Sequence record: OQ873415.1
Length of the DNA stretch: 64,000 bases
Source of the DNA: Escherichia phage PECP20
Strand: one strand, 5' to 3'
Part shown: one piece after another, positions 47,956-58,970 of the stretch
Layout: each line of letters opens with the position of its first letter
Position numbering within the stretch: the stretch's first letter is position 1
Notes under the pieces: model-generated
What the model was told of the DNA's origin: nothing
What the model saw: only the letters and a program-made list of their open reading frames with translations
Database searches by the model: none
Made by a program: the position numbers and the translations under genes

Positions 47956-49120
47956 CGAAATCTTCCATTTCGTCAAGGTCGTTTTCAATATCTGCTGCAG
48001 ACGGAGCATCAGAAGCTTTAACCGGAACTTTAGTTGTTGCTTTGCAATTAATAAGGTCGTTAACAGCGTCATCAACTTCTTTAATAGAAGAGATAGCGCC
48101 TAGTTTATATTTAGTTTCAATTGCATCTCGGAAAGGTTTGTGTTTAAACAACGGTCCCCAGAATTCTACACAATCAGTAGCTTTAGCACGCCACGATTTC
48201 TCTTCACGAATCATTTCACCTGTTTCTTCGTCAAGGAATTCACGAGCATACCAACCAGCTTTAGGCTTAACAACAAATCCAATTTCAGTTGCCATTTCTA
48301 ACAAGCCACTGAATGGATCGATACCGCCGTCAAAATTAACCGTGATTGGGAAAGTAGATTTCTCTTTAACTGTACGAGATTTTTCTGCTTTCAACGTGAA
48401 GTCATAACCGGTCAATTCTGTACCTTCTTTAACCTGACGTTTAGAGATAAAGAATACAGTGTTAGCAGAGTAAAGAATACCTGTACCACCACCCATAATC
48501 TCTTTAGGATATAGTCCGCCGATTTCCATTGCTGTATGGTTGATTGCAACACACGGAATATCTTTAATAGTCAGATAAGGAGTCACAATACGGAACAGAG
48601 ATTTAAGTGCCTTAGCACGAGACATATCACCTACGACTTTCTCGTTCAATGCATCTTCGGTTTCTTTCTTAGATGCAGTATTACCGATTGAATCGATAAA
48701 GATAATAACTTTATCACCGCGTTCAATAGCGTCAAGCTGATTAGTCATATCAACTTTAAGTTGTTCTACAGATTGAATCGGAGTATGAACTACACGGTCT
48801 AAATCAACACCCATTGAACGAAAATAAGATTCTGAAGCACCGAATTCCGAGTCATAAAACAAACAGATTGCATCTTTATATTTCTTCATATACGCTGCAA
48901 CCATAGTCAGCCCAAACAATGTTTTAAAGTGTTTAGAAGGAGCAGCAAAAATAGTTAAGCCTGATTGCAATCCTGCATTCAGAGCACCACCTAGTGCGAT
49001 ATTCAACATCGGAATACGAGTAGGGACTTCATCACGATTATTAAACAGCTTAGACTTAGTCAAGTCTGCAGTCATTTTAGAAGTAGAAGCTTTAATCAGA
49101 CGAGATTTTAAATCAGACAT
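47948..49120 (-). CDS. uvsX: Recombinase UvsX (RecA/Rad51 family)
   Basis: 390 aa (T4 UvsX 391 aa); Walker A and acidic C-terminal tail. Confidence 0.9.
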   Translation of the reverse strand: MSDLKSRLIKASTSKMTADLTKSKLFNNRDEVPTRIPMLNIALGGALNAGLQSGLTIFAAPSKHFKTLFGLTMVAAYMKKYKDAICLFYDSEFGASESYFRSMGVDLDRVVHTPIQSVEQLKVDMTNQLDAIERGDKVIIFIDSIGNTASKKETEDALNEKVVGDMSRAKALKSLFRIVTPYLTIKDIPCVAINHTAMEIGGLYPKEIMGGGTGILYSANTVFFISKRQVKEGTELTGYDFTLKAEKSRTVKEKSTFPITVNFDGGIDPFSGLLEMATEIGFVVKPKAGWYAREFLDEETGEMIREEKSWRAKATDCVEFWGPLFKHKPFRDAIETKYKLGAISSIKEVDDAVNDLINCKATTKVPVKASDAPSAADIENDLDEMEDFDE

Positions 49121-49218
49121 TGTATTTTTCCATAGGCATCATTATATTTTACTCATGTTTAAAAGATAAGACGATTATATACTAAGGGTTATACAGCATT
49201 TAAAACTTTAAATGGCTC

Positions 49219-49767
49219 TTAACGAGCCCATTTGATGATTTCTGTAATCAAACCATTACGTTCGCTTGCATTAAATCCTATAATTTTGTTAGCACCATCA
49301 TGATTAAGTAATTGATACGTTTGGATTTTGTTATGAATTGCAAACTCTTCAAAATGTGAAATGACTGTATTAAAACCGAATGAAGACAAAGTAATAAGGT
49401 CGTCTTCAAAACTTTCAGTCATTTCATTACGTGTTAAAATAATTGTGAACACATCATGGTTTTGGCAAAGACGAACATAGTCCTGTTCATAAACATCAAG
49501 AACAGAGTCCGCATCTTGCCGAATACGTCCATAAACCCAGTTACTAATATATCCACGGTCTAACAGATAAATCTTAGTAGGGTCTAAATAATTCAACATC
49601 GTTTCGAAACAGCCAACTTCATTTCGAGACTTAACATCGAAACGTCCATCAACTGTTCGTTTAGGAAAATCAATCTTTACATATCTTTCACTAATTTCCA
49701 TTATGTCATTAATGAAAGTTGTTTTACCAGCATTATCTGGGCCGTCTACTAAAATAATTTTAGCCAT
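49219..49767 (-). CDS. P-loop kinase-like protein (unknown substrate)
   Basis: 182 aa; Walker A GPDNAGKTT at residues 9-17; size and layout of small nucleoside/nucleotide or sugar kinases; not a T4 gene at this locus. Confidence 0.5.
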   Translation of the reverse strand: MAKIILVDGPDNAGKTTFINDIMEISERYVKIDFPKRTVDGRFDVKSRNEVGCFETMLNYLDPTKIYLLDRGYISNWVYGRIRQDADSVLDVYEQDYVRLCQNHDVFTIILTRNEMTESFEDDLITLSSFGFNTVISHFEEFAIHNKIQTYQLLNHDGANKIIGFNASERNGLITEIIKWAR

Positions 49768-49768
49768 T

Positions 49769-50668
49769 TTATTCCTCGATTACGACATCTTCGTATTTAG
49801 GTATATTATATGGTGAAGAAATTAAAGCATTAAAGTAGATGAACTCACCAAGACCTGGATGGAATACTTCTTCAGGATTTTCGAAATATTGAATCTTCGG
49901 GCGTCCTTTAAGAATTTGATAGTACTCAGTTTTAGTTGGTTTAAAAATTCGAATCAGCGCTTCTTCAGGATACTTATTTCTGTCGAAGCTATTATTTGGA
50001 TCGGTTATATAAAGCGGTTGACCTAATTGAATTGCACATTCAACCACTTGTTCAAAACGATAACATGGGTCACTAATTCGAAATGGATGAAAAATACCAT
50101 CTAGATGAATAGGAGCCAAATCACCTACAAGACGCTGCATGATGGAAGGACGTATAACTTTCTGAGTTACGATAATCTTATTACCATCTGCACCTGCGTT
50201 AACCAGCACTTCTTTTTGACGTTCATTCAACACGGTAGTTTGAAGTGAACGATTAACTGACAACATATCGGTTTTTAAGAATTCGTCAATATAAAAACGT
50301 TGTTTATTAGGGTCTGCAGTGATATTGAAATTGAATTCTACATCAAAAGCGCCGCCATAACCAGTGATATCTGTGATTAGAAAATCACAATCATAATAAT
50401 CAATTAATGAATCAACCACAAATTCATTTTCAGTCCAGAAATATTTACGAGTGTTATACGCGTTATCTTTATACCATAATGGAACAAACTTAAATTCTGG
50501 GAAAAGACGTTCGCATTCTTTAATATCAGATGCATTACGTGGATATGTAATCACATCACCCGGATTAGCACGGTGCAAATGAAGTTGGAAGTTGCCATCC
50601 TTAAGGATAGCATACTGTCCAGTTTCATAAGACCGCATACTCAAGATTGGTACGCGGAAAATAGCCAT
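49769..50668 (-). CDS. hypothetical protein occupying T4 beta-gt locus (possible transferase)
   Basis: 299 aa; no confident motif (a DCD tripeptide after a hydrophobic stretch could be a DxD); translationally coupled to flanking genes. Confidence 0.45.
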   Translation of the reverse strand: MAIFRVPILSMRSYETGQYAILKDGNFQLHLHRANPGDVITYPRNASDIKECERLFPEFKFVPLWYKDNAYNTRKYFWTENEFVVDSLIDYYDCDFLITDITGYGGAFDVEFNFNITADPNKQRFYIDEFLKTDMLSVNRSLQTTVLNERQKEVLVNAGADGNKIIVTQKVIRPSIMQRLVGDLAPIHLDGIFHPFRISDPCYRFEQVVECAIQLGQPLYITDPNNSFDRNKYPEEALIRIFKPTKTEYYQILKGRPKIQYFENPEEVFHPGLGEFIYFNALISSPYNIPKYEDVVIEE

Positions 50669-51384
50669 TAGTCAAGGAATCCTTTAACATAATCAAAATC
50701 ACGTTCAAACACATGGGCGCTTACCATGGTATGAGTATAATCACCAACTTCTACACCGCATTCGTTAGCGATATAATGAAGTAATTTTCCTTGGAGATAA
50801 AAATCCAACTGCATAACAACAGCACAGTTCTGAGAACGCATATGACAGTGGGTATAAAGCTTACCATCACGAATATAATAAGTTACTGAGTCAGTACATG
50901 GATATTCAAGTGTTTCGTCCGAATCAAGCAAAGCCTGATCAGAACTTTCTAGAATTTGGAACACAACTCTTCGAGAGTTAGGTTTTTCTTTAAGTTCTTT
51001 TAGAAGAGTTGGTAATTGGGCCGCAATGCGAGGGCCATAGAAAGTGTTGAAGTTCGCCGGCAAAACATCTGATTTTGGTTTAGAAATAAATTTAGCGACA
51101 TTAGGATATGCCTTAAACGCTTCTTCTGCGTTGGTACCACCAGAAATCATAAACTTCCAGAAGTCTTCGGCATATTCATAAGAGATGCGGTTAATACGTG
51201 GGTCGGTCATTTTGAATGATGATGGAGTGTCAACAACTACTGTCATAGACCCAATTTCATTACAACGTCCAATACGAGAATCAGTTACGAATTCGGGGTT
51301 TTCTAAAATTTCACGATTGACTGCTTTAAATGCGGTTTGAAAATCTGCGGCTTTGATATATTTCATTGTGTTATGTTTTCCCAT
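50668..51384 (-). CDS. 42: Thymidylate-synthase-fold pyrimidine hydroxymethylase, gp42-like (dCMP hydroxymethylase)
   Basis: 238 aa; motifs NSRR, PCTDS (catalytic Cys), MRSQN and C-terminal SAHVFERDF parallel T4 gp42 NPDSRRG / MCTNT / MRSND / SLHVYSRHF as recalled. Confidence 0.6.
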   Translation of the reverse strand: MGKHNTMKYIKAADFQTAFKAVNREILENPEFVTDSRIGRCNEIGSMTVVVDTPSSFKMTDPRINRISYEYAEDFWKFMISGGTNAEEAFKAYPNVAKFISKPKSDVLPANFNTFYGPRIAAQLPTLLKELKEKPNSRRVVFQILESSDQALLDSDETLEYPCTDSVTYYIRDGKLYTHCHMRSQNCAVVMQLDFYLQGKLLHYIANECGVEVGDYTHTMVSAHVFERDFDYVKGFLD

Positions 51385-51426
51385 GTTTACCTCAATACAA
51401 TTTATTATATACTCAATTCATAAAGC

Positions 51427-51666
51427 TTATTTGAATTTCTTGACAATGTTGATATAACGTAAAGCTTCAGAATCTATACTTCCAAGAACACTATGAAGGA
51501 ATGCATCAGTGTAGTATTCCAATTGAACAGGTTCTTTAATCACTTTAGCCGCTTTGGTTTCAAACAGGCCCATAAGGGCCTTTTTAAGAATTTGTTCGTT
51601 AGTGTTCAGTTTCATAGTCAAAATCTCTTCGTTAAGTTTATAATTAAAACTTTTTCTAGAAATCAT
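51427..51666 (-). CDS. hypothetical small protein
   Basis: 79-aa ORF, coupled to upstream gene (ATGA-type overlap). Confidence 0.35.
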   Translation of the reverse strand: MISRKSFNYKLNEEILTMKLNTNEQILKKALMGLFETKAAKVIKEPVQLEYYTDAFLHSVLGSIDSEALRYINIVKKFK

Positions 51667-52823
51667 TCCGGGTACCTCAAAGCGTCATCAGAGTTAGTTA
51701 TATCAATAATAGATATGGAGTTTTCTGCTAACCCGTTTTTAGATAATTGACGTTTATAATACCTTTCACAATATGTACACGTTGACCCACAGATTTCATT
51801 AGCACAATCAAAATCTGGATGTCTGAACCACCTTTTTTCTAAAAAGCCATCTAACAAAGAGGTTTCAATATTTACTGTATGTGAAAACTCAGTCTCATTT
51901 TCAAGAGTGAAAATAGTCTCTAAAGGCTTCCACAGTTCTAACAAATTACCTTCAAACTTTTCAGAAGCGTATGCTTCAAGAACTTTCAAAATGTAGTCTG
52001 TGCTACCTGTACGTCCTGAAACTTTGAATTGAGTGATACCAATATCATTATAAAGTTTCAAATCTTGAGGACGAACAAAACGAGTTCTCAACCAGTTAAA
52101 TGGGTCTGTATCACGAGCTTTAATACAGTGCTGCATAGGATATCCATTTAAGGATTTAGCATCATCAGCGGTAACATCAGTACTATGGAAAATATAGCAA
52201 GAGTCACGATAACTACAATGTGTTGTATACCCTTTACCAGCATTAGAACAGAACTCATTTACAAGAACTTCAAATATTATATTGTTCTTATTGCAAAACT
52301 CTGCTGCACGCTTCAGGAAAGAAACTGAACGGTTCTTATGAATTCCGCAACAGACCTTTTTGATGTTATATTGGTCATGTAAGTATTTGATTTGAGTTAC
52401 CGCATCGACATGTAGAATTGTTGAAACTTCAATCTCAATATCTTTATTGACTTCACGAACAATTTCCATAACAACAGGGTTAGCGATAGTAATACGCCAT
52501 ACGCCTATTGACCAAAGATACTGAACATAATCCTGAATAGCTTTCTTCTTCCACTCAACTAGTTCTCTTTTTGAACCAGGATTTATCGTGTTGAGTGTAT
52601 AGTTAAAGCAAATACCTAATTCGTTACAACGTTTAACGTAGTCTTCTAACATCTTTTTGTCAACGTCAGGAAGCCTAAAATCAGGTCTGGCTGCTACAAA
52701 AGCCATTTCTCTTGTAGAGCCATATACTTCGTTTATCAAGCTATTAGGATAGGTTTTATTGAGCTCTACGATTTTATCAAGAAGAGCTAAATCAAAATTC
52801 GTTCCGATTTTAAAAGTATTCAT
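51663..52823 (-). CDS. Cys-rich putative metalloenzyme (possible Fe-S enzyme, U32-like?)
   Basis: 386 aa; many Cys including C-terminal CANEICGSTCTYC (C-x4-C-x3-C-x2-C) and HCSYRDSC resembling the U32 signature CxSYxxxC; assignment speculative. Confidence 0.45.
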   Translation of the reverse strand: MNTFKIGTNFDLALLDKIVELNKTYPNSLINEVYGSTREMAFVAARPDFRLPDVDKKMLEDYVKRCNELGICFNYTLNTINPGSKRELVEWKKKAIQDYVQYLWSIGVWRITIANPVVMEIVREVNKDIEIEVSTILHVDAVTQIKYLHDQYNIKKVCCGIHKNRSVSFLKRAAEFCNKNNIIFEVLVNEFCSNAGKGYTTHCSYRDSCYIFHSTDVTADDAKSLNGYPMQHCIKARDTDPFNWLRTRFVRPQDLKLYNDIGITQFKVSGRTGSTDYILKVLEAYASEKFEGNLLELWKPLETIFTLENETEFSHTVNIETSLLDGFLEKRWFRHPDFDCANEICGSTCTYCERYYKRQLSKNGLAENSISIIDITNSDDALRYPE

Positions 52824-52879
52824 TTTTTTGCATCTCGCGTTAATTGATGCGATGGTTTTTGCAGGTCTTACTTAAATTA

Positions 52880-53281
52880 TTATAGATTTGGTTTATATGA
52901 TTTAAATGTTTCGAATTCGCCTTTATTCATAAGAGCTTTGAATTCGTCAGGACGCATAGCTTTGTCGTCGATAATCCAATCATATACTGGTTTATGTGTT
53001 AGCAAATTATGGTACTTCAAACCAATGTTTTCCAAGTTCTGAATCAGACTTGGGAGAATGTCAATTGCTATACGACCAGGACCTACCGACTTCATACCAC
53101 GGGCAGTGTAAAGCGTTATGGTATGCCCTGCATCATACAGGGCATTAATGGCAGACACCATTTCGACGTCTGGTTTGAAGTTCACGTAATCACGATTGTT
53201 ATTCCACTCTGTTATACAATCATCGACATCAAAACAAAGATTAAGCATGTTTTCTACACGGTGCATTAGATTCGTTCCCAT
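52880..53281 (-). CDS. putative HAD-superfamily phosphatase-like protein
   Basis: 133 aa; N-terminal FDVDDC (DxDx motif I-like) followed by TLYTARG; weak. Confidence 0.4.
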   Translation of the reverse strand: MGTNLMHRVENMLNLCFDVDDCITEWNNNRDYVNFKPDVEMVSAINALYDAGHTITLYTARGMKSVGPGRIAIDILPSLIQNLENIGLKYHNLLTHKPVYDWIIDDKAMRPDEFKALMNKGEFETFKSYKPNL

Positions 53282-54951
53282 TGATGAGTGATATCGCCGC
53301 CGATTGGACGATAGGAAACACCAGTTTCTTTATCAGTTAGTACCCATTTACCAGGATTTTTTGTAATCAGAGTAGCCGTTACAGGTTCTGCTACGTCATA
53401 ACTAATAGAGCCGTCTTGAAGTACACGGCCCATGTTACGTAATTGCTTAGTCAGAAGTTCCATACCTTTATAATATGCGGCAACCGCTTTAAGTGGATTA
53501 TTCTTGAAATAACCACCTAATGCAATCCAGATAATTGCTACTGCCAAATGATGATACTCGTTAAACGAACTCATCTTTCCATATTTGTAAACTAATGGAT
53601 TGATGTTAATAGTCAAATTACAAGTTGTTTCATCAATAGTAAACTGACCCCAGGTCGGATTAGCATTGAATTCATCATAACCTGAAACAGCATAAAGCAC
53701 TTTAGCTTCATCATACAATTTTGGCCCGTAAATCTTGGTTTCACCAAAATATCCACGAGGGTCGATAAACTTGACTTCGCCGTTATCGGTAATCATAGTA
53801 TTACTGAAGTTCGGGTCACCATGAATAACAGAGTACTGTCCCTGAGAACGGTTATGATAACGAATAAGATGTTCTAAAGCTTGTTTCAACATTGGCTTCA
53901 GACGTCCAATCTTAGTGTAGTTCACATGTGTGATTTTACCAAATGAATCAATCAATGGCTGAATGCTTTCACAACGATCAATAACTTTCGTATAGAACTC
54001 TTTAGTGAAATCACGGCGAACAGTTTCAGGACTTACAAAATAAGTGTCCGTGCTGAATTTCAGTGCATCTAAAATTGCATCAACAATTTGTGGACGAGCA
54101 AGACTTGATTTGGATTTAATATATTCAAATGCCGGCTTACCTTTAATACGTTCCATTTCAAAATTATTTTCATTTACCGAAACTAACTGAGGAACTGAAT
54201 CTGATTTCACTTTCAAATACCATGAAATCTCATCTTTTTGAAGAGCTCGACCTTGTTCGGTTAACGCGAATTTAGTTACAGTTTCTTCGCCAATTTCAAC
54301 TGCATTAAAACTACGATTCAGTTCACGAACTTCATGAGCCTTTTCAAGTTTAGGCATATCACCTAAATCAATTAGATTCATAAGCTCTGATTTATTGAAT
54401 GCACTGCCGTAAAGGAATTCTACGAAATCACGACCTTTGCAGTATTCGTGAATTTCCTCATCAGTAGAACCCATGTAGAATTCCCAGTCTTTGAACTGAT
54501 AAATTCCTACAACATTACCACCTGTTGAACCTACGTTAGTGATATTTTCACCATCGAAATTATATCGACATTCATCACCCTTAACATAGATTGCGTTAAC
54601 ATTCCAAGACCATGAACCAAAGTCAGGAATAATATCACACCAGTTAACAATTACGTTATGGCCATCTAAATCTTTGTATAATTTAGCAAGAGCATAAGCA
54701 GAACCATACGCTTCATCAACTGTACGAATAGTCACATTGAACCCTTCTTGCTCGCAATAAGCTCGAACAGTTTCAGCAAATTTTGAATGAACTACTACAA
54801 TAATTTCATCTGCGCCAAGGTCAGAATAAATTGTATACAAATTGCTCAGAATAGTGTCTTGTTTATAGTTAACAAGCACCTTAGGAATATGGTGAGTAAT
54901 TGGATATAAACGAGTTGCTAATCCAGCACCAAGAATAACAGCTTTTTTCAT
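53266..54951 (-). CDS. Bifunctional sugar-1-phosphate nucleotidyltransferase (N-term) / APH-like anomeric sugar kinase (C-term)
   Basis: 561 aa; N-terminal MKKAVILGAGLATRLYPIT (G-x-G-T-R-L nucleotidyltransferase motif); C-terminal VIHGDPNFSNTMITDNGEVKFIDPRGYFG (HxDxxxxN catalytic loop plus IDxR of choline-kinase/APH fold). Confidence 0.6.
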   Translation of the reverse strand: MKKAVILGAGLATRLYPITHHIPKVLVNYKQDTILSNLYTIYSDLGADEIIVVVHSKFAETVRAYCEQEGFNVTIRTVDEAYGSAYALAKLYKDLDGHNVIVNWCDIIPDFGSWSWNVNAIYVKGDECRYNFDGENITNVGSTGGNVVGIYQFKDWEFYMGSTDEEIHEYCKGRDFVEFLYGSAFNKSELMNLIDLGDMPKLEKAHEVRELNRSFNAVEIGEETVTKFALTEQGRALQKDEISWYLKVKSDSVPQLVSVNENNFEMERIKGKPAFEYIKSKSSLARPQIVDAILDALKFSTDTYFVSPETVRRDFTKEFYTKVIDRCESIQPLIDSFGKITHVNYTKIGRLKPMLKQALEHLIRYHNRSQGQYSVIHGDPNFSNTMITDNGEVKFIDPRGYFGETKIYGPKLYDEAKVLYAVSGYDEFNANPTWGQFTIDETTCNLTININPLVYKYGKMSSFNEYHHLAVAIIWIALGGYFKNNPLKAVAAYYKGMELLTKQLRNMGRVLQDGSISYDVAEPVTATLITKNPGKWVLTDKETGVSYRPIGGDITHQWERI

Positions 54952-54992
54952 GTTGAAGTCCTCATTGGTAAGTAGGTGTATTGTACACTATT

Positions 54993-55136
54993 CTAGTTAA
55001 AGCATTCATACTTTGCCTGTAGACCAATCATAATCCATCCAATTACAAGTGTTGGAATCATTACTGGAGCCGTTAAGCCCCAGTAGATAGTCATGGCAAG
55101 CATCAATAGTAAAAGTCCTATTGTTATTGCTTTCAT
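54993..55136 (-). CDS. small hydrophobic protein (47 aa)
   Basis: Hand-translated: MKAITIGLLLLMLAMTIYWGLTAPVMIPTLVIGWIMIGLQAKYECFN; ATG overlaps stop of SIS gene; possible Imm-like membrane peptide. Confidence 0.3.
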   Translation of the reverse strand: MKAITIGLLLLMLAMTIYWGLTAPVMIPTLVIGWIMIGLQAKYECFN

Positions 55137-55768
55137 TGTTCGCCTCGTAACATGGCACCTAGTGCACCACCAGGGTGGAACTTAAGGAAGTCATTAGAGG
55201 TAAATCCACGTTCAGACGAAAGGTTGATAGCAAACGTATCGATAAGCGCTAACAACAATGTAGTGGACATGGTCGGAGCCAGAGAATTCTCATCAACCTC
55301 TACCGCGATGCCTGTACAGAACGTATAATCAAAAAGAGCTTCGTATTCTTGCGGAATGTCAGGGTTACAATGTAACAGAATCTGTTTAACCTGAGGACGA
55401 ATCATACGAAGATGTTTAGCAACACCTATCATTTCTTCAGTCTTACCAGAACGACTGATGTGAACTAATACATCATTAGGTGCAATAAATCCTGCGTCGC
55501 CATGAGAATAATGCCCGGTGTTCAAATACATGCTAGGAATACCTAGTGAAGCAAAAGTCTCGGAAGCTTTAGTTGCGATATTAGCGTTCTTACCAACACC
55601 TGTAATAATTACTCGGCTTTCATAATTACTCAGTCCAGGGCGACGAAGAGTTTCAAGAATAGCATTATATCGGGCAGAGTTTTGACTAATTACTTTAGCC
55701 ATAGTGGCAAGAGATGAAGCTTGTTTTACGATTGCGTCAATAGCGATAGTGATTGGTGTAGTTTTCAT
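55133..55768 (-). CDS. SIS-domain sugar-phosphate isomerase (arabinose-5-phosphate isomerase KdsD/GutQ-like, no CBS domains)
   Basis: 211 aa; ITGVGKNANIA...HGDAGFIAPNDVLVHISRSGKTEE...APTMSTTLLLALIDTF...FLKFHPGGALG parallels the KdsD SIS domain motifs as recalled. Confidence 0.65.
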   Translation of the reverse strand: MKTTPITIAIDAIVKQASSLATMAKVISQNSARYNAILETLRRPGLSNYESRVIITGVGKNANIATKASETFASLGIPSMYLNTGHYSHGDAGFIAPNDVLVHISRSGKTEEMIGVAKHLRMIRPQVKQILLHCNPDIPQEYEALFDYTFCTGIAVEVDENSLAPTMSTTLLLALIDTFAINLSSERGFTSNDFLKFHPGGALGAMLRGEQ

Positions 55769-55808
55769 ATTTCTCTCATTTAATTAGTTTACCGTCCATG
55801 GCATTATA

Positions 55809-58520
55809 TCAAAAATCGAACATATCGAACAGAGATGCTTTCTTCTCGTAATCGAGTTTCGCTGCTGATGTGAATCCTTCAAGTGGTTTAATAAATGTCT
55901 TCTCAAGGAGAACAGTGTAGTCCATCCAATGAAGTACGTCGTCTTTAATTAAATCTGTGATTTCAGTACCAGAAGGCCATGCGATACATTTATCACCGAA
56001 CGGGTTTCCATCACGTAAAGGCAGAACGTATACCTTTTCGCCTTCTACAACTTGTGGAGCATCAATATTACCTTTGATAGCTCTGTTATATGTCAGAATT
56101 CCACGAATATGGAACGGGCATTTAGGACCAGGGAATCCACCAACGTCATATTTAGCAATGTTATTCGCAGAAGATACTGACGCGATGCTAATATAATTCA
56201 ATTGACGGAATTCTTTTTCAAACTCTTTAAAATATTCTTGTAATGATTCTTCACCTTCTTGAAGCATACGACGAATACATTCTTTAAGAGCTTTCTGTAC
56301 TGCTTTAGGGGTCGAAGATTTCTGTGTTTCGAGACCCATGATTTTGAGTTTAGGCTCAGCGTATCTGGTTCCTTCCATATCCCACACGTTTAATGCATAA
56401 CGTTTCTTACCAGTCCAGAATCCACCAATACCTTTAGAACCGAGTGGAGGACCAGCAATAGCTTCTCGGTCCATGAACATCAAATGTTGCTTATTATTCA
56501 TGTATTCACACATTTCACGGAAACCTCTATCAATAGCCGGTTCCATACGTTCACGAGCGAACTTATCTAAGAAGTCTACCCAATGGTTGGTATCACGGAA
56601 TTTAGATTCACCAACCTTATCAATAATTTTATCTGCAGATACGTAAATAGAGTCTGTATCACCATAAAGAACGAAAGCTTCACCTTCTGTACCACAAACT
56701 TCGTTCAGATATTCATTAACTTTACGTTCAATCCACTGTAAAGCCATTTGACCAAATGTTGTGATTGCAGTTGCATTACGCAAATCGTAATAACGGAACC
56801 AAACGTTACCAAGTGCACCATAAAGCGAGTTGATGAGCAATTTACGGTTAATTTGTGCAGTCATACCTGCAACTTCAGTACGTTGAGCTCTAAACAACAT
56901 TTCATTAAGAGATTTAGCAGACAACTTTTTAATCTTTTCTTTAATCTCATCGCTGAAGTCGAAACGATAATCAACATCTAATGGTTCGTCAACAGAAAGA
57001 TTAGGATTATGCAACGCCTCTTTAATTATTTCACCATTACGTTGAGCCGCAAGCATGTAACCTTTATGTTCTTTACGTTGATTAAAGACCTTAGTGATTT
57101 CAGTTGGAACTACACCATCACGGTCTTTATAATACATCATGCCATTAGGAGAACAACTGTACACATCTGAAGGACGTTCAGCGATTGCGTTAATATAATC
57201 ATGCAGTGGAGCTACTTTAAACGTTCCTGCTATTGTTTCCGGGCTAATATTCACTTGGCGAATAATACTTGGATACAGGGATGTAAGGTCGAAACTCATT
57301 ACATATTTGTATCGATTTGGAATAGGTTCCTTAACAAAAGCGCCAGGATAAGGTTGAACCGGGTGAGAACGACCTTGTGGAATCACCTTGTTCTGCTCTT
57401 TAAGGCTATTAAAAATAATAGCATCCCATGTTTTAATTGGGCTAAACACAGATTGAATCTGTATCTTAGCATAATAACCCATGTCCAAACTCAAGTTGAT
57501 GAACTGACGCTTAGCATCAATTTGCAATACACGATACACGTCGATAATGTTATAAGAAATATATCGTTGGTGATTGCTTTCACGAAGCTTAGAAATAGGG
57601 CCGTCATATTTCAGTTTACCAACGTTCAATTCAAATTCTGAAATGTAATCCAGAGAATACGACGGTTGATTGGTAAAAGAGAATTTTTTGTAAAGGTCAA
57701 TGTAATCAAGAACAGAGATACCGAACAATGTAATGATTTCACGAGAACCATACATGTTTTCGATAACTTTAACACGAGTTTTACGATGTGGTGATAAACG
57801 TTTTGCTGTGGATTCACCAAAAATATTCTTGATTCTGTTATACACATATGGAATATCAAATGACTCAACGTTCCATCCAGTCAAAATGACAGGAGTTTTC
57901 TGTTGCCAGAAGTTGAGATATTCCATCAACAATTCTTTTTCGTTATCGAACGGCATATAAATGATTTTATCGATAATTTCGGATGGAACTTCATCACCAC
58001 CTTGTTCTTGAAGCTTAGCAGCGATTTCAATAGACCATTCTTCTACATTACCATATGGAGAATTCAATAGATCAAATACGTAGAACCTGTCGTCAATTGA
58101 GTCATAATGAGTGATAGCATCAATCGGATGTTTTGCTTGTGACGGCTCAGGGAACCCATCCGGAGATGTTACTTCGATGTCGAAGTTAGCCACACGAATT
58201 TTTGTATGGTCGTATTTGATTTCATAGTTATAAGTGTCAGACAAATACGCCAATTTGAAATCGTCCATGCCAAGTGCTTCAAGTCCGATATCTTCCATGC
58301 GTTTAATCCATTGGGAGGCATCACGCATATTAGCGAACAACTTACGAGTACACGGCTTACCGTAGATATCGAAATATTTCGTAGCCTGACTTTCTGGACA
58401 ATGTGCAAACAACGATGGCTTATACTCTACTTCACGAGTACGTTCACGGCCATTAGAATCGATGTAACGTTCAAAAATTGAATCACCAATCTGTTCAACC
58501 GTTAAGTAAAATTCTTTCAT
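55809..58520 (-). CDS. 43: DNA polymerase gp43 (family B, with 3'-5' exonuclease)
   Basis: 903 aa; N-terminus MKEFYLTVEQIGDSIFERYIDSNGRERTREVEYKPSLFAHCPESQATKYFDIYGKPCTRKLF and exo motif NFDIEV match RB69 gp43 as recalled; pol motifs SLYPSII, YGDTDS. Confidence 0.95.
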   Translation of the reverse strand: MKEFYLTVEQIGDSIFERYIDSNGRERTREVEYKPSLFAHCPESQATKYFDIYGKPCTRKLFANMRDASQWIKRMEDIGLEALGMDDFKLAYLSDTYNYEIKYDHTKIRVANFDIEVTSPDGFPEPSQAKHPIDAITHYDSIDDRFYVFDLLNSPYGNVEEWSIEIAAKLQEQGGDEVPSEIIDKIIYMPFDNEKELLMEYLNFWQQKTPVILTGWNVESFDIPYVYNRIKNIFGESTAKRLSPHRKTRVKVIENMYGSREIITLFGISVLDYIDLYKKFSFTNQPSYSLDYISEFELNVGKLKYDGPISKLRESNHQRYISYNIIDVYRVLQIDAKRQFINLSLDMGYYAKIQIQSVFSPIKTWDAIIFNSLKEQNKVIPQGRSHPVQPYPGAFVKEPIPNRYKYVMSFDLTSLYPSIIRQVNISPETIAGTFKVAPLHDYINAIAERPSDVYSCSPNGMMYYKDRDGVVPTEITKVFNQRKEHKGYMLAAQRNGEIIKEALHNPNLSVDEPLDVDYRFDFSDEIKEKIKKLSAKSLNEMLFRAQRTEVAGMTAQINRKLLINSLYGALGNVWFRYYDLRNATAITTFGQMALQWIERKVNEYLNEVCGTEGEAFVLYGDTDSIYVSADKIIDKVGESKFRDTNHWVDFLDKFARERMEPAIDRGFREMCEYMNNKQHLMFMDREAIAGPPLGSKGIGGFWTGKKRYALNVWDMEGTRYAEPKLKIMGLETQKSSTPKAVQKALKECIRRMLQEGEESLQEYFKEFEKEFRQLNYISIASVSSANNIAKYDVGGFPGPKCPFHIRGILTYNRAIKGNIDAPQVVEGEKVYVLPLRDGNPFGDKCIAWPSGTEITDLIKDDVLHWMDYTVLLEKTFIKPLEGFTSAAKLDYEKKASLFDMFDF

Positions 58521-58568
58521 TTAATTTCCTTTAGACGAGTTATTGTCTTTTGTTTGTTGATGAACTTA

Positions 58569-58588
58569 TTATACTCCAAATGGGACCG
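58569..58588 (-). terminator. Stem-loop after regA, upstream of gene 43
   Basis: Minus strand AAUGGGAC-UUCG-GUCCCAUU followed by UGGAGUAUAAU. Confidence 0.5.
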
Positions 58589-58601
58589 AAGTCCCATTGC
58601 T

Positions 58602-58970
58602 TTAATTACCAATTGTATATTTTGCTTTCAAAGTCCAGTCATCTTTCTGTTTAAAAGAGATAACACGGAAGTTATTAGTCAGGCTAAATAGATCTTCACG
58701 AGCAGAGTCTTCAATAACAATTAACCCCCAGTCTTCAAGCAACTGGGCAATCGAATCACGTCGCTGATAGTCTTCACCGTCGATATCAACTTGTCGTCCG
58801 TCCATACGCAGCATTTCTTTAAAGTGGACGATGTAGTATTTACCTTGCTTTTGGAGGATATGACAGGACTGATAAAGAACTTTATCCTTGTTATTAGCGA
58901 TGCCCATACGGGTCAGAGTCTCTTTGACTTTCAGAAAATCTTCGGGGTTCTTCAATTTAATTTCGATCAT
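58602..58970 (-). CDS. regA: Translational repressor RegA
   Basis: ATG at 58970 gives 122 aa beginning MIEIKLKNPEDFLKVKETLTRMGIANNKDKVLYQSCHIL, matching T4 RegA. Confidence 0.85.
   Translation of the reverse strand: MIEIKLKNPEDFLKVKETLTRMGIANNKDKVLYQSCHILQKQGKYYIVHFKEMLRMDGRQVDIDGEDYQRRDSIAQLLEDWGLIVIEDSAREDLFSLTNNFRVISFKQKDDWTLKAKYTIGN

Follow-up and report, generated by a model that had tools for sequence, protein, structure and literature searches.

Why would a T-even-like coliphage carry, next to its DNA polymerase gene, a gene for what appears to be a sugar-phosphate isomerase? The question is raised by an open reading frame encoding a SIS-domain protein in a 64,000-nt stretch of Escherichia phage PECP20 (OQ873415.1), which we refer to as the window. 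The source phage is a Mosigvirus, an RB69-like coliphage; the 5-kb stretch around the SIS gene is 99.5% identical to that of Escherichia phage p000v and 95–99% identical to that of about 150 other genomes of Mosigvirus (RB69-like T-even phages). Our analysis of the gene and its surroundings leads us to assign a probability of roughly 0.9 to the following answer: the ORF encodes a stand-alone D-arabinose-5-phosphate (A5P) isomerase (EC 5.3.1.13) that supplies the arabinosylation of phage DNA, and we infer that the enzyme interconverts D-ribulose-5-phosphate (Ru5P) and A5P. In the order of transcription, the features considered here are as follows.

55809..58520, minus strand: gene 43, DNA polymerase, 903 aa; the upstream neighbor of the SIS gene in transcription
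55133..55768, minus strand: predicted single-domain SIS arabinose-5-phosphate isomerase, homolog of RB69 gp55 (ORF055c); 211 aa, ATG start
54993..55136, minus strand: small hydrophobic ORF, equivalent of RB69 gp54; 47 aa; PHROG 3610 (unknown function), E = 2.5e-26
53266..54951, minus strand: N-terminal sugar-1-phosphate nucleotidyltransferase plus C-terminal kinase-like domain, RB69 gp52:53; 561 aa
52880..53281, minus strand: HAD-type phosphatase, RB69 gp51, analog of HY126 AfhF; TIGR01689 (E = 1.9e-13), PHROG 1238 and the p000v annotation
51663..52823, minus strand: U32-family protein, RB69 gp50; 386 aa; Pfam Peptidase_U32, E = 7.3e-11
51427..51666, minus strand: 79-aa ORF, RB69 gp49; its slot is held by chorismate mutase in related genera
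50668..51384, minus strand: thymidylate synthase homolog, 5-hydroxy-dCMP synthase, RB69 gp48; Pfam Thymidylat_synt, E = 1.9e-15
49769..50668, minus strand: putative first DNA arabinosyltransferase, RB69 gp46:47; 299 aa; role proposed in PMC13326640
49219..49767, minus strand: thymidylate-kinase-like nucleotide kinase, RB69 gp45; 182 aa; Table 1 of PMC13326640

The translated SIS protein contains all the motifs that the first-pass annotation had listed for it, namely GVGKN (residues 57–61), HGD (89–91), SRSGKTEE (105–112) and HPGGALG (198–204). Its sole Pfam domain is SIS (PF01380; E = 9.6e-10, residues 51–181, above the cut-off), and Pfam detects no CBS domain anywhere in the 211 residues. Since the chain ends only 7 residues past HPGGALG, the tandem CBS domains of KdsD and GutQ are indeed missing, as had been claimed. 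PHROG 5670, 'arabinose 5-phosphate isomerase', matches the protein from end to end (E = 2e-116), a tblastn search returned homologs in 275 phage records, and dN/dS is 0.054 in comparison with either RB69 or HY126, at a dS of about 0.4. Taken together, the PHROG match, the tblastn records and the dN/dS value argue that this is not a chance ORF, and the gene is under strong purifying selection.

The gene had also been described as lying immediately upstream of gene 43. This is the case in plus-strand coordinates only: since the minus strand carries both genes, the SIS gene, separated from gene 43 by 40 nt, is on its downstream side in transcription. The start codon is preceded by a Shine-Dalgarno-like GAGAGA, and the stop codon overlaps the start of the 47-aa ORF (ATGA). 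Just upstream of the SIS start there is a TATAAT with no visible MotA box. A promoter and terminator scan of positions 49000–58700 was not informative, with fewer promoter-like sites than in shuffled sequences. A further claim, that the gene has no counterpart in T4, agrees with what is found in the T4/T2-type phage HY01, where only imm and two small ORFs lie between genes 43 and 42. It also agrees with the earlier report of eight RB69 genes in this region without T4 homologs (Thomas 2018, PMC6024577).

To which of the SIS subfamilies does the protein belong? The three best NCBIfam models are KpsF/GutQ (TIGR00393, E = 8.5e-32), KdsD (3.4e-30) and GutQ (2.5e-22), followed by SIS regulators (HexR, AlsR, MurR/RpiR) at 1e-6 to 1e-3. 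The scores are below the curated cut-offs, 110.8 versus 203.7 bits for TIGR00393 and 105.4 versus 505 for KdsD. The TIGR00393 match spans profile positions 2–153 of 268, that is, the SIS half only, and we attribute the low scores to the missing CBS pair, which leaves a single half of the two-part profiles to be matched. No GmhA or hexulose-phosphate isomerase model in NCBIfam matched the protein at E ≤ 0.01. The sequence search against PDB (E ≤ 0.001) returned a Bacteroides fragilis protein (3etn, 1e-24), c3406 (5uqi, 2e-22), the SIS domain of KdsD (2xhz, 2e-18) and a Listeria protein (3fxa, 1e-12). All four are A5P isomerases of the KpsF/GutQ/KdsD kind or their single-domain relatives; GmhA was absent from the PDB sequence matches even at E ≤ 10.

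The structural comparison gave the same picture. An AlphaFold2 model, built on an alignment of 24 sequences (members of the phage clade plus two cellular homologs with CBS domains), had a pLDDT of 95.2 and a pTM of 0.90. The top nine Foldseek rows were chains of the same four structures, 3etn, 5uqi, 2xhz and 3fxa, with TM-scores (normalized to the target) of 0.78–0.91; superposition of the model on 2xhz gave a TM-score to the target of 0.91 and an rmsd of 1.8 Å. SIS regulators appeared at lower ranks (about 1e-7), and GmhA was found only at rank 44, with 2.5e-6 compared to 1e-13 for KdsD.

Within the 24-sequence alignment, K60, H89, E112, E157 and H198 are invariant. We take these to be the equivalents of the KdsD active-site residues K59, H88, E111, E152 and H193, a list that is said to go back to Gourlay 2010. 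The register of the active site can be read from the structural matches: the alanine of the K59A mutant captured in 2xhz is opposite K60, and the HPGG motif is aligned with both 5uqi and 3etn, the alignments to which (residues 46–205 and 48–206, respectively) reach the C-terminal motif. The SIS protein is closer to the KpsF/GutQ/KdsD isomerases than to other SIS subfamilies. The comparison with the KdsD/GutQ/KpsF and GmhA families that the first-pass annotation had suggested thus comes out in favor of the former in profiles, PDB sequences and Foldseek alike; the best matches are isomerases rather than GmhA or a regulator, and the five active-site residues, far from being lost, are invariant.

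Next we turn to the genes that accompany the isomerase. The module at 49219..55768 lies on one strand and is 97–100% identical to its RB69 and HY126 counterparts, except for the 79-aa ORF (about 88%). The 47-aa ORF is kept in RB69, HY126 and Virsaitis27 and has a partial match in the imm–42 spacer of Tequatrovirus HY01; its counterpart in the RB69 record bears the remark 'similar to T4 42-imm intercistronic region'. The 561-aa protein, the analog of HY126 AfhE, matches Pfam NTP_transferase (1.3e-9) and NCBIfam nucleotidyltransferase models, with weak matches to kinase families. It is 96.6% identical to its HY126 counterpart and 99.4% identical to that of RB69 over the 343 aa matched, the gene being split there. 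The HAD protein matches a model for capsule biosynthesis phosphatase (the TIGR01689 of the list), and its RefSeq start is 4–5 codons further in, at about 53267. Identity to RB69 gp48 reaches 98.7% for the thymidylate synthase homolog. The 299-aa arabinosyltransferase is 98.3% identical to its HY126 counterpart and 96.7% identical to that of RB69 (181 aa matched, the gene again being split there). The gene for the thymidylate-kinase-like protein is followed by uvsX. The window therefore carries the complete and intact arabinosyl-5-hydroxycytosine module of RB69-type phages.

Much of the biochemical setting of this module has been described. Arabinose on RB69 DNA was identified by Thomas 2018, who put forward ORF055c and ORF53_52c as possible UDP-arabinose synthesis genes, a proposal aided by a Butyrivibrio protein that fuses a kinase/nucleotidyltransferase to a SIS domain (PMC6024577). 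Both RB69 and HY126 have since been shown to carry arabinosylated 5-hydroxycytosine, and for RB69 gp48 synthesis of 5-hydroxy-dCMP with O2 and flavin was demonstrated experimentally (Lee 2026, PMC13326640). The modified base is thus 5-hydroxycytosine, not hmC. Arabinosyl-5-hydroxycytosine blocks many restriction enzymes and shapes the sensitivity to type IV systems (PMC13326640, PMC13390438). Lee 2026 proposes that gp55 converts Ru5P to Araf5P and that gp52:53 and gp51 act thereafter; as cited there, this scheme follows He 2026, which characterized HY126 AfhE as an enzyme with A5P kinase and UDP-arabinose pyrophosphorylase activities, and AfhF as a phosphatase (PMC13326640). The enzyme at the head of the pathway in published schemes is accordingly gp55, acting on Ru5P to give A5P, which is where the first-pass annotation had put it. 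The RB69 reference record, too, labels gp55 'arabinose 5-phosphate isomerase, similar to GutQ'. In PMC6024577 and PMC13326640, no enzymatic assay was found for either the SIS protein or RB69 gp55.

Applied to the window, the pathway would run as follows. The SIS isomerase would draw Ru5P from the pentose-phosphate pathway of the host and convert it to A5P, which the kinase domain of the 561-aa protein is predicted to phosphorylate at C1, giving Araf-1,5-P2. The HAD phosphatase would then remove the 5-phosphate, and from the resulting Araf-1-P the nucleotidyltransferase domain of the 561-aa protein would make UDP-arabinofuranose. Finally, the phage arabinosyltransferases would place arabinose on 5-hydroxycytosine in DNA, which is expected to protect it from restriction.

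Does the phage need an isomerase of its own? The E. coli host has its own KdsD and GutQ, so A5P can exist even without the SIS gene. The demand can be estimated at about 0.6–2.5 × 10^7 arabinose units, and hence A5P molecules, per infected cell, if the genome is taken to be about 168 kb long with the 37.5% GC of the window, which gives about 63,000 cytosines, and if each of these bears one or two arabinoses and the burst is 100–200. By our own estimate, this is more than the host's Kdo demand per generation. We infer that the phage isomerase probably raises A5P flux above what host KdsD and GutQ supply.

The distribution of the gene in other phages bears on the same point. Genes for the isomerase, the kinase/nucleotidyltransferase and the HAD protein occur together in Mosigvirus, Winklervirus and Acinetobacter phage Acj9. 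In Acj9 and in Erwinia phage Virsaitis27 the isomerase is accompanied by the set of bifunctional kinase/nucleotidyltransferase, HAD phosphatase, 5-hydroxy-dCMP synthase and arabinosyltransferase. Sphingomonas phage PAU encodes homologs of the isomerase and the kinase/nucleotidyltransferase close together; PAU gp214, considered as a possible HAD phosphatase, showed no similarity. No phage SIS gene was found in the related clusters of Klebsiella phage F48, Proteus phage Pm5461 and Shewanella phage Thanatos-2, where TH2_064, a candidate, turned out to have no similarity to the SIS protein and to be a HAD phosphatase. Likewise, neither Klebsiella nor Proteus appears among the organisms returned by the SIS tblastn search; the U32 gene is carried by 26 Klebsiella and 7 Proteus phages. 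These SIS-less clusters suggest that the isomerase step is dispensable in some phage–host pairs, and they fit an auxiliary role for the phage gene. The phage isomerase may thus be an optional, CBS-less flux booster, which Mosigvirus, Winklervirus and Acinetobacter phages carry and the otherwise equivalent Klebsiella, Proteus and Shewanella clusters do without.

Other explanations of the gene have to be weighed against this reading. The fold is common to all SIS enzymes, both MJ1247 (1jeo) and GmhA (5lu7) are in the Foldseek list, and some related phage clusters manage without a phage SIS gene. All this might be expected if the protein were a phosphosugar isomerase with another substrate (GmhA-like heptose-7-phosphate, hexulose-phosphate or another pentulose phosphate) and the arabinose came from host A5P. 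We nonetheless regard such a function as very unlikely, given that GmhA and hexulose-phosphate isomerase models are missing from the NCBIfam matches and GmhA ranks so low in Foldseek, that the full isomerase active-site set is invariant, the C-terminal HPGG histidine included, and that the sugar on the phage DNA is arabinose. Still less probable is a non-catalytic, sugar-phosphate-binding SIS sensor or regulator similar to the effector domains of RpiR, MurR and HexR. It would account for the weak profile matches to HexR, AlsR and MurR/RpiR and for the regulator structures found by Foldseek, but matches to isomerases are stronger by at least 20 orders of magnitude, and the catalytic Lys, His and Glu are invariant. 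Moreover, Pfam detects no HTH domain, the 211 residues being taken up by the SIS domain and N-terminal helices only. The NCBIfam, PDB sequence (E ≤ 10) and Foldseek searches thus agree in rejecting an identity with GmhA or with a regulator.

One might also accept A5P isomerase activity and suppose that it mainly serves a purpose other than DNA modification, such as the upkeep of host Kdo/LPS synthesis during infection. Kdo synthesis is indeed the housekeeping role of the A5P isomerase family, and a KdsD–KdsC–Lpt operon was seen at one of the loci examined. Against this, the phage gene is embedded among UDP-arabinose and 5-hydroxycytosine genes and co-inherited with them in several phage genera, and no phage KdsA, KdsB or KdsC lies nearby; we consider this the most improbable explanation of all. 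An A5P isomerase that feeds DNA arabinosylation remains our preferred assignment. Both the identity and the role of the enzyme had already been annotated and published, so that the first-pass reading, while supported, is not new. The value of the SIS gene lies in confirmation, as the assignment holds under profile, structure, active-site and synteny tests.

A different member of the cluster, the U32 protein, deserves separate consideration. The U32 family includes RlhA, TrhP and UbiU/UbiV, enzymes that work without O2. For RlhA, which makes 5-hydroxycytidine in 23S rRNA, dependence on prephenate and an Fe-S cluster has been shown (PMC5727448). In an alignment to E. coli RlhA, TrhP, UbiU and UbiV, the Glu of the U32 motif and all but one of its four cysteines are conserved in the phage protein, which has an additional C-terminal CX5CX3CX2C. 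Within the cluster it shows the strongest conservation, with 82–86% identity across genera; a PDB sequence search with it returned no match. In Winklervirus, Marfavirus, Bragavirus, Thanatos and other phages, the U32 gene adjoins or lies near a gene for chorismate mutase (Pfam CM_2, 1.7e-11; AroQ catalytic residues conserved; 54 phage records), located mostly between the U32 gene and the thymidylate synthase homolog. We could not detect a chorismate mutase in Mosigvirus by BLASTP or by hhalign on the 79-aa ORF. The possibility that this ORF is itself a diverged chorismate mutase was rejected, as BLASTP found nothing in comparison with phage chorismate mutases and the hhalign probability was 0.1. 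Large phage-like contigs from metagenomes encode U32 relatives of 48–58% identity, with dCMP deaminase, thymidylate kinase, deoxynucleoside kinase and NT5C as neighbors, and in one such contig a DAHP synthase (2.6e-70) directly follows the U32 gene. Acinetobacter hosts are strict aerobes, and Acinetobacter phages lack the U32 gene though the rest of the module is present; Acj9p080, considered as a diverged U32 protein, showed no similarity. This correlation between the U32 gene and host aerobiosis is confounded by phage phylogeny.

The U32 protein might tentatively be read as a prephenate-dependent, Fe-S, O2-independent pyrimidine C5-hydroxylase, providing an anaerobic route to 5-hydroxycytosine beside the O2- and flavin-dependent gp48 homolog; we think this possible, though we would not yet favor it. 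It has been listed as 'sugar or heterocycle reductase' (Lee 2026, PMC13326640), and the Durham paper counts an 'epimerase' among the sugar-modifying genes of the cluster. We found no paper that links the U32 protein to prephenate-dependent hydroxylation in the literature covered, which did not extend to He 2026 and Mahler 2025. If the hydroxylase reading is true, these gut phages would gain an anaerobic route to 5-hydroxycytosine. The U32 gene is the one lead from this cluster worth handing on.

How, then, does the phage isomerase compare with known systems? RB69 gp55 (RB69ORF055c, NP_861745.1) is 96% identical to it, with 8 substitutions, none at conserved positions, and the HY126 homolog (XAN60481.1) is 97.2% identical; both agree with it in length, in their place after gene 43 and in their neighbors. 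The RB69 reference differs in that genes 52/53 and 46/47 are split by sequencing errors, whereas both genes are intact in the present phage.

With KdsD, GutQ and KpsF the phage protein has the catalytic domain and the active-site residues in common, but the C-terminal CBS pair is theirs only. The first-pass annotation had remarked on a stand-alone SIS domain. The protein does lack CBS domains, but this is not unusual, its nearest solved relatives being single-domain proteins as well. E. coli CFT073 c3406 (5uqi/5vhu), which was crystallized with A5P, B. fragilis 3etn and L. monocytogenes 3fxa are, like the phage protein, SIS proteins of about 200 aa that end in HPGG(A/S)LG and have no CBS domains, although identity to the phage protein is only 22–31%. 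The activity of single-domain isomerases has reportedly been measured, in work attributed to Mosberg 2011 and Cech 2014, and the CBS pair is unneeded for catalysis in these enzymes. Their cellular roles are in capsule or Kdo synthesis or are unknown, whereas the phage product is proposed to feed DNA modification. An analogy may also be drawn with the GmhA–HldE–GmhB route to ADP-heptose, in which the order of activities appears alike (SIS isomerase, anomeric kinase, HAD phosphatase, nucleotidyltransferase) and the kinase and the transferase are likewise fused. However, that route handles C7 substrates and the phage pathway C5 ones, the enzymes belong to other subfamilies, and the phage SIS protein is not a GmhA.

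Two genes of the arabinosyl-5-hydroxycytosine cluster are each present as one intact ORF in the window:

49769–50668, (−) strand: glycosyltransferase, 299 aa
53266–54951, (−) strand: kinase/nucleotidyltransferase, 561 aa

In the RB69 reference genome (NC_004928), by contrast, both are divided in two, the glycosyltransferase into ORF046/047 and the kinase/nucleotidyltransferase into ORF052/053. These splits have been published as sequencing errors (PMC6024577, PMC13326640), a view that the single intact ORFs in the window support.

Klebsiella phage F48, Proteus phage Pm5461 and Shewanella phage Thanatos-2 carry genes for the kinase/nucleotidyltransferase, HAD protein, U32 protein, chorismate mutase, thymidylate-synthase homologue and glycosyltransferase, and neither inspection of their clusters nor tblastn detected a phage SIS isomerase gene. 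These phages presumably obtain A5P from host KdsD, or else use another sugar. A further SIS match, in the 378-kb record CAKLQF020000001.1 ('Acinetobacter phage MD-2021a'), lies within an ordinary bacterial kdsD-kdsC-lptA-lptB operon adjoining cysS and a tRNA. This record holds host chromosome, and its SIS match is not a phage isomerase.

Three smaller ORFs also lie in the cluster:

51427–51666, (−) strand: 79-aa ORF, in the slot held by chorismate mutase in other genera
52880–53281, (−) strand: HAD-type phosphatase, matching TIGR01689 (capsule biosynthesis phosphatase, 1.9e-13)
54993–55136, (−) strand: 47-aa hydrophobic ORF with an ATGA overlap with the SIS gene

BLASTP and hhalign detected no similarity between the 79-aa ORF and phage chorismate mutases. 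It occurs in Mosigvirus only and evolves faster than its neighbors (80–96% identity vs 99% for the U32 protein); in many relatives it is truncated, and in HY126 only 40 aa are annotated. The 47-aa ORF, translationally coupled to the SIS gene through the ATGA overlap, matches PHROG 3610 (unknown function). Its Winklervirus counterpart is kept at 62%, and the imm-42 spacer of one Tequatrovirus matches it partially. As for the HAD-type phosphatase, RefSeq phage records widely give it the wrong name 'phosphoheptose isomerase', as does PHROG 1238.

A U32-family protein is also encoded within the cluster:

51663–52823, (−) strand: U32-family protein

It has been labelled a reductase (PMC13326640) or an epimerase (Durham paper). 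According to the alignment, the U32 Glu is retained, as are all but one of the four motif cysteines, and the C-terminus bears CX5CX3CX2C. No other protein of the cluster is as well conserved: identity between genera is 82–86%. Related loci are L008, L009–L011 (from F48, Thanatos-2 and Pm5461) and L015–L020. A genuine chorismate mutase gene adjoins or neighbors it in 54 related phage records. Homologs with 48–58% identity have dCMP deaminase, thymidylate kinase, dNK and NT5C as neighbors; in one contig, DAHP synthase follows immediately. Acinetobacter phages, which infect strictly aerobic hosts, lack the U32 gene. Taken together, the residues, the conservation, the chorismate mutase, DAHP synthase and nucleotide-gene neighbors, and the absence from Acinetobacter phages suggest that the U32 protein is a candidate prephenate-dependent, O2-independent pyrimidine hydroxylase. 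Such an activity would resemble that of the hydroxylases RlhA and TrhP.
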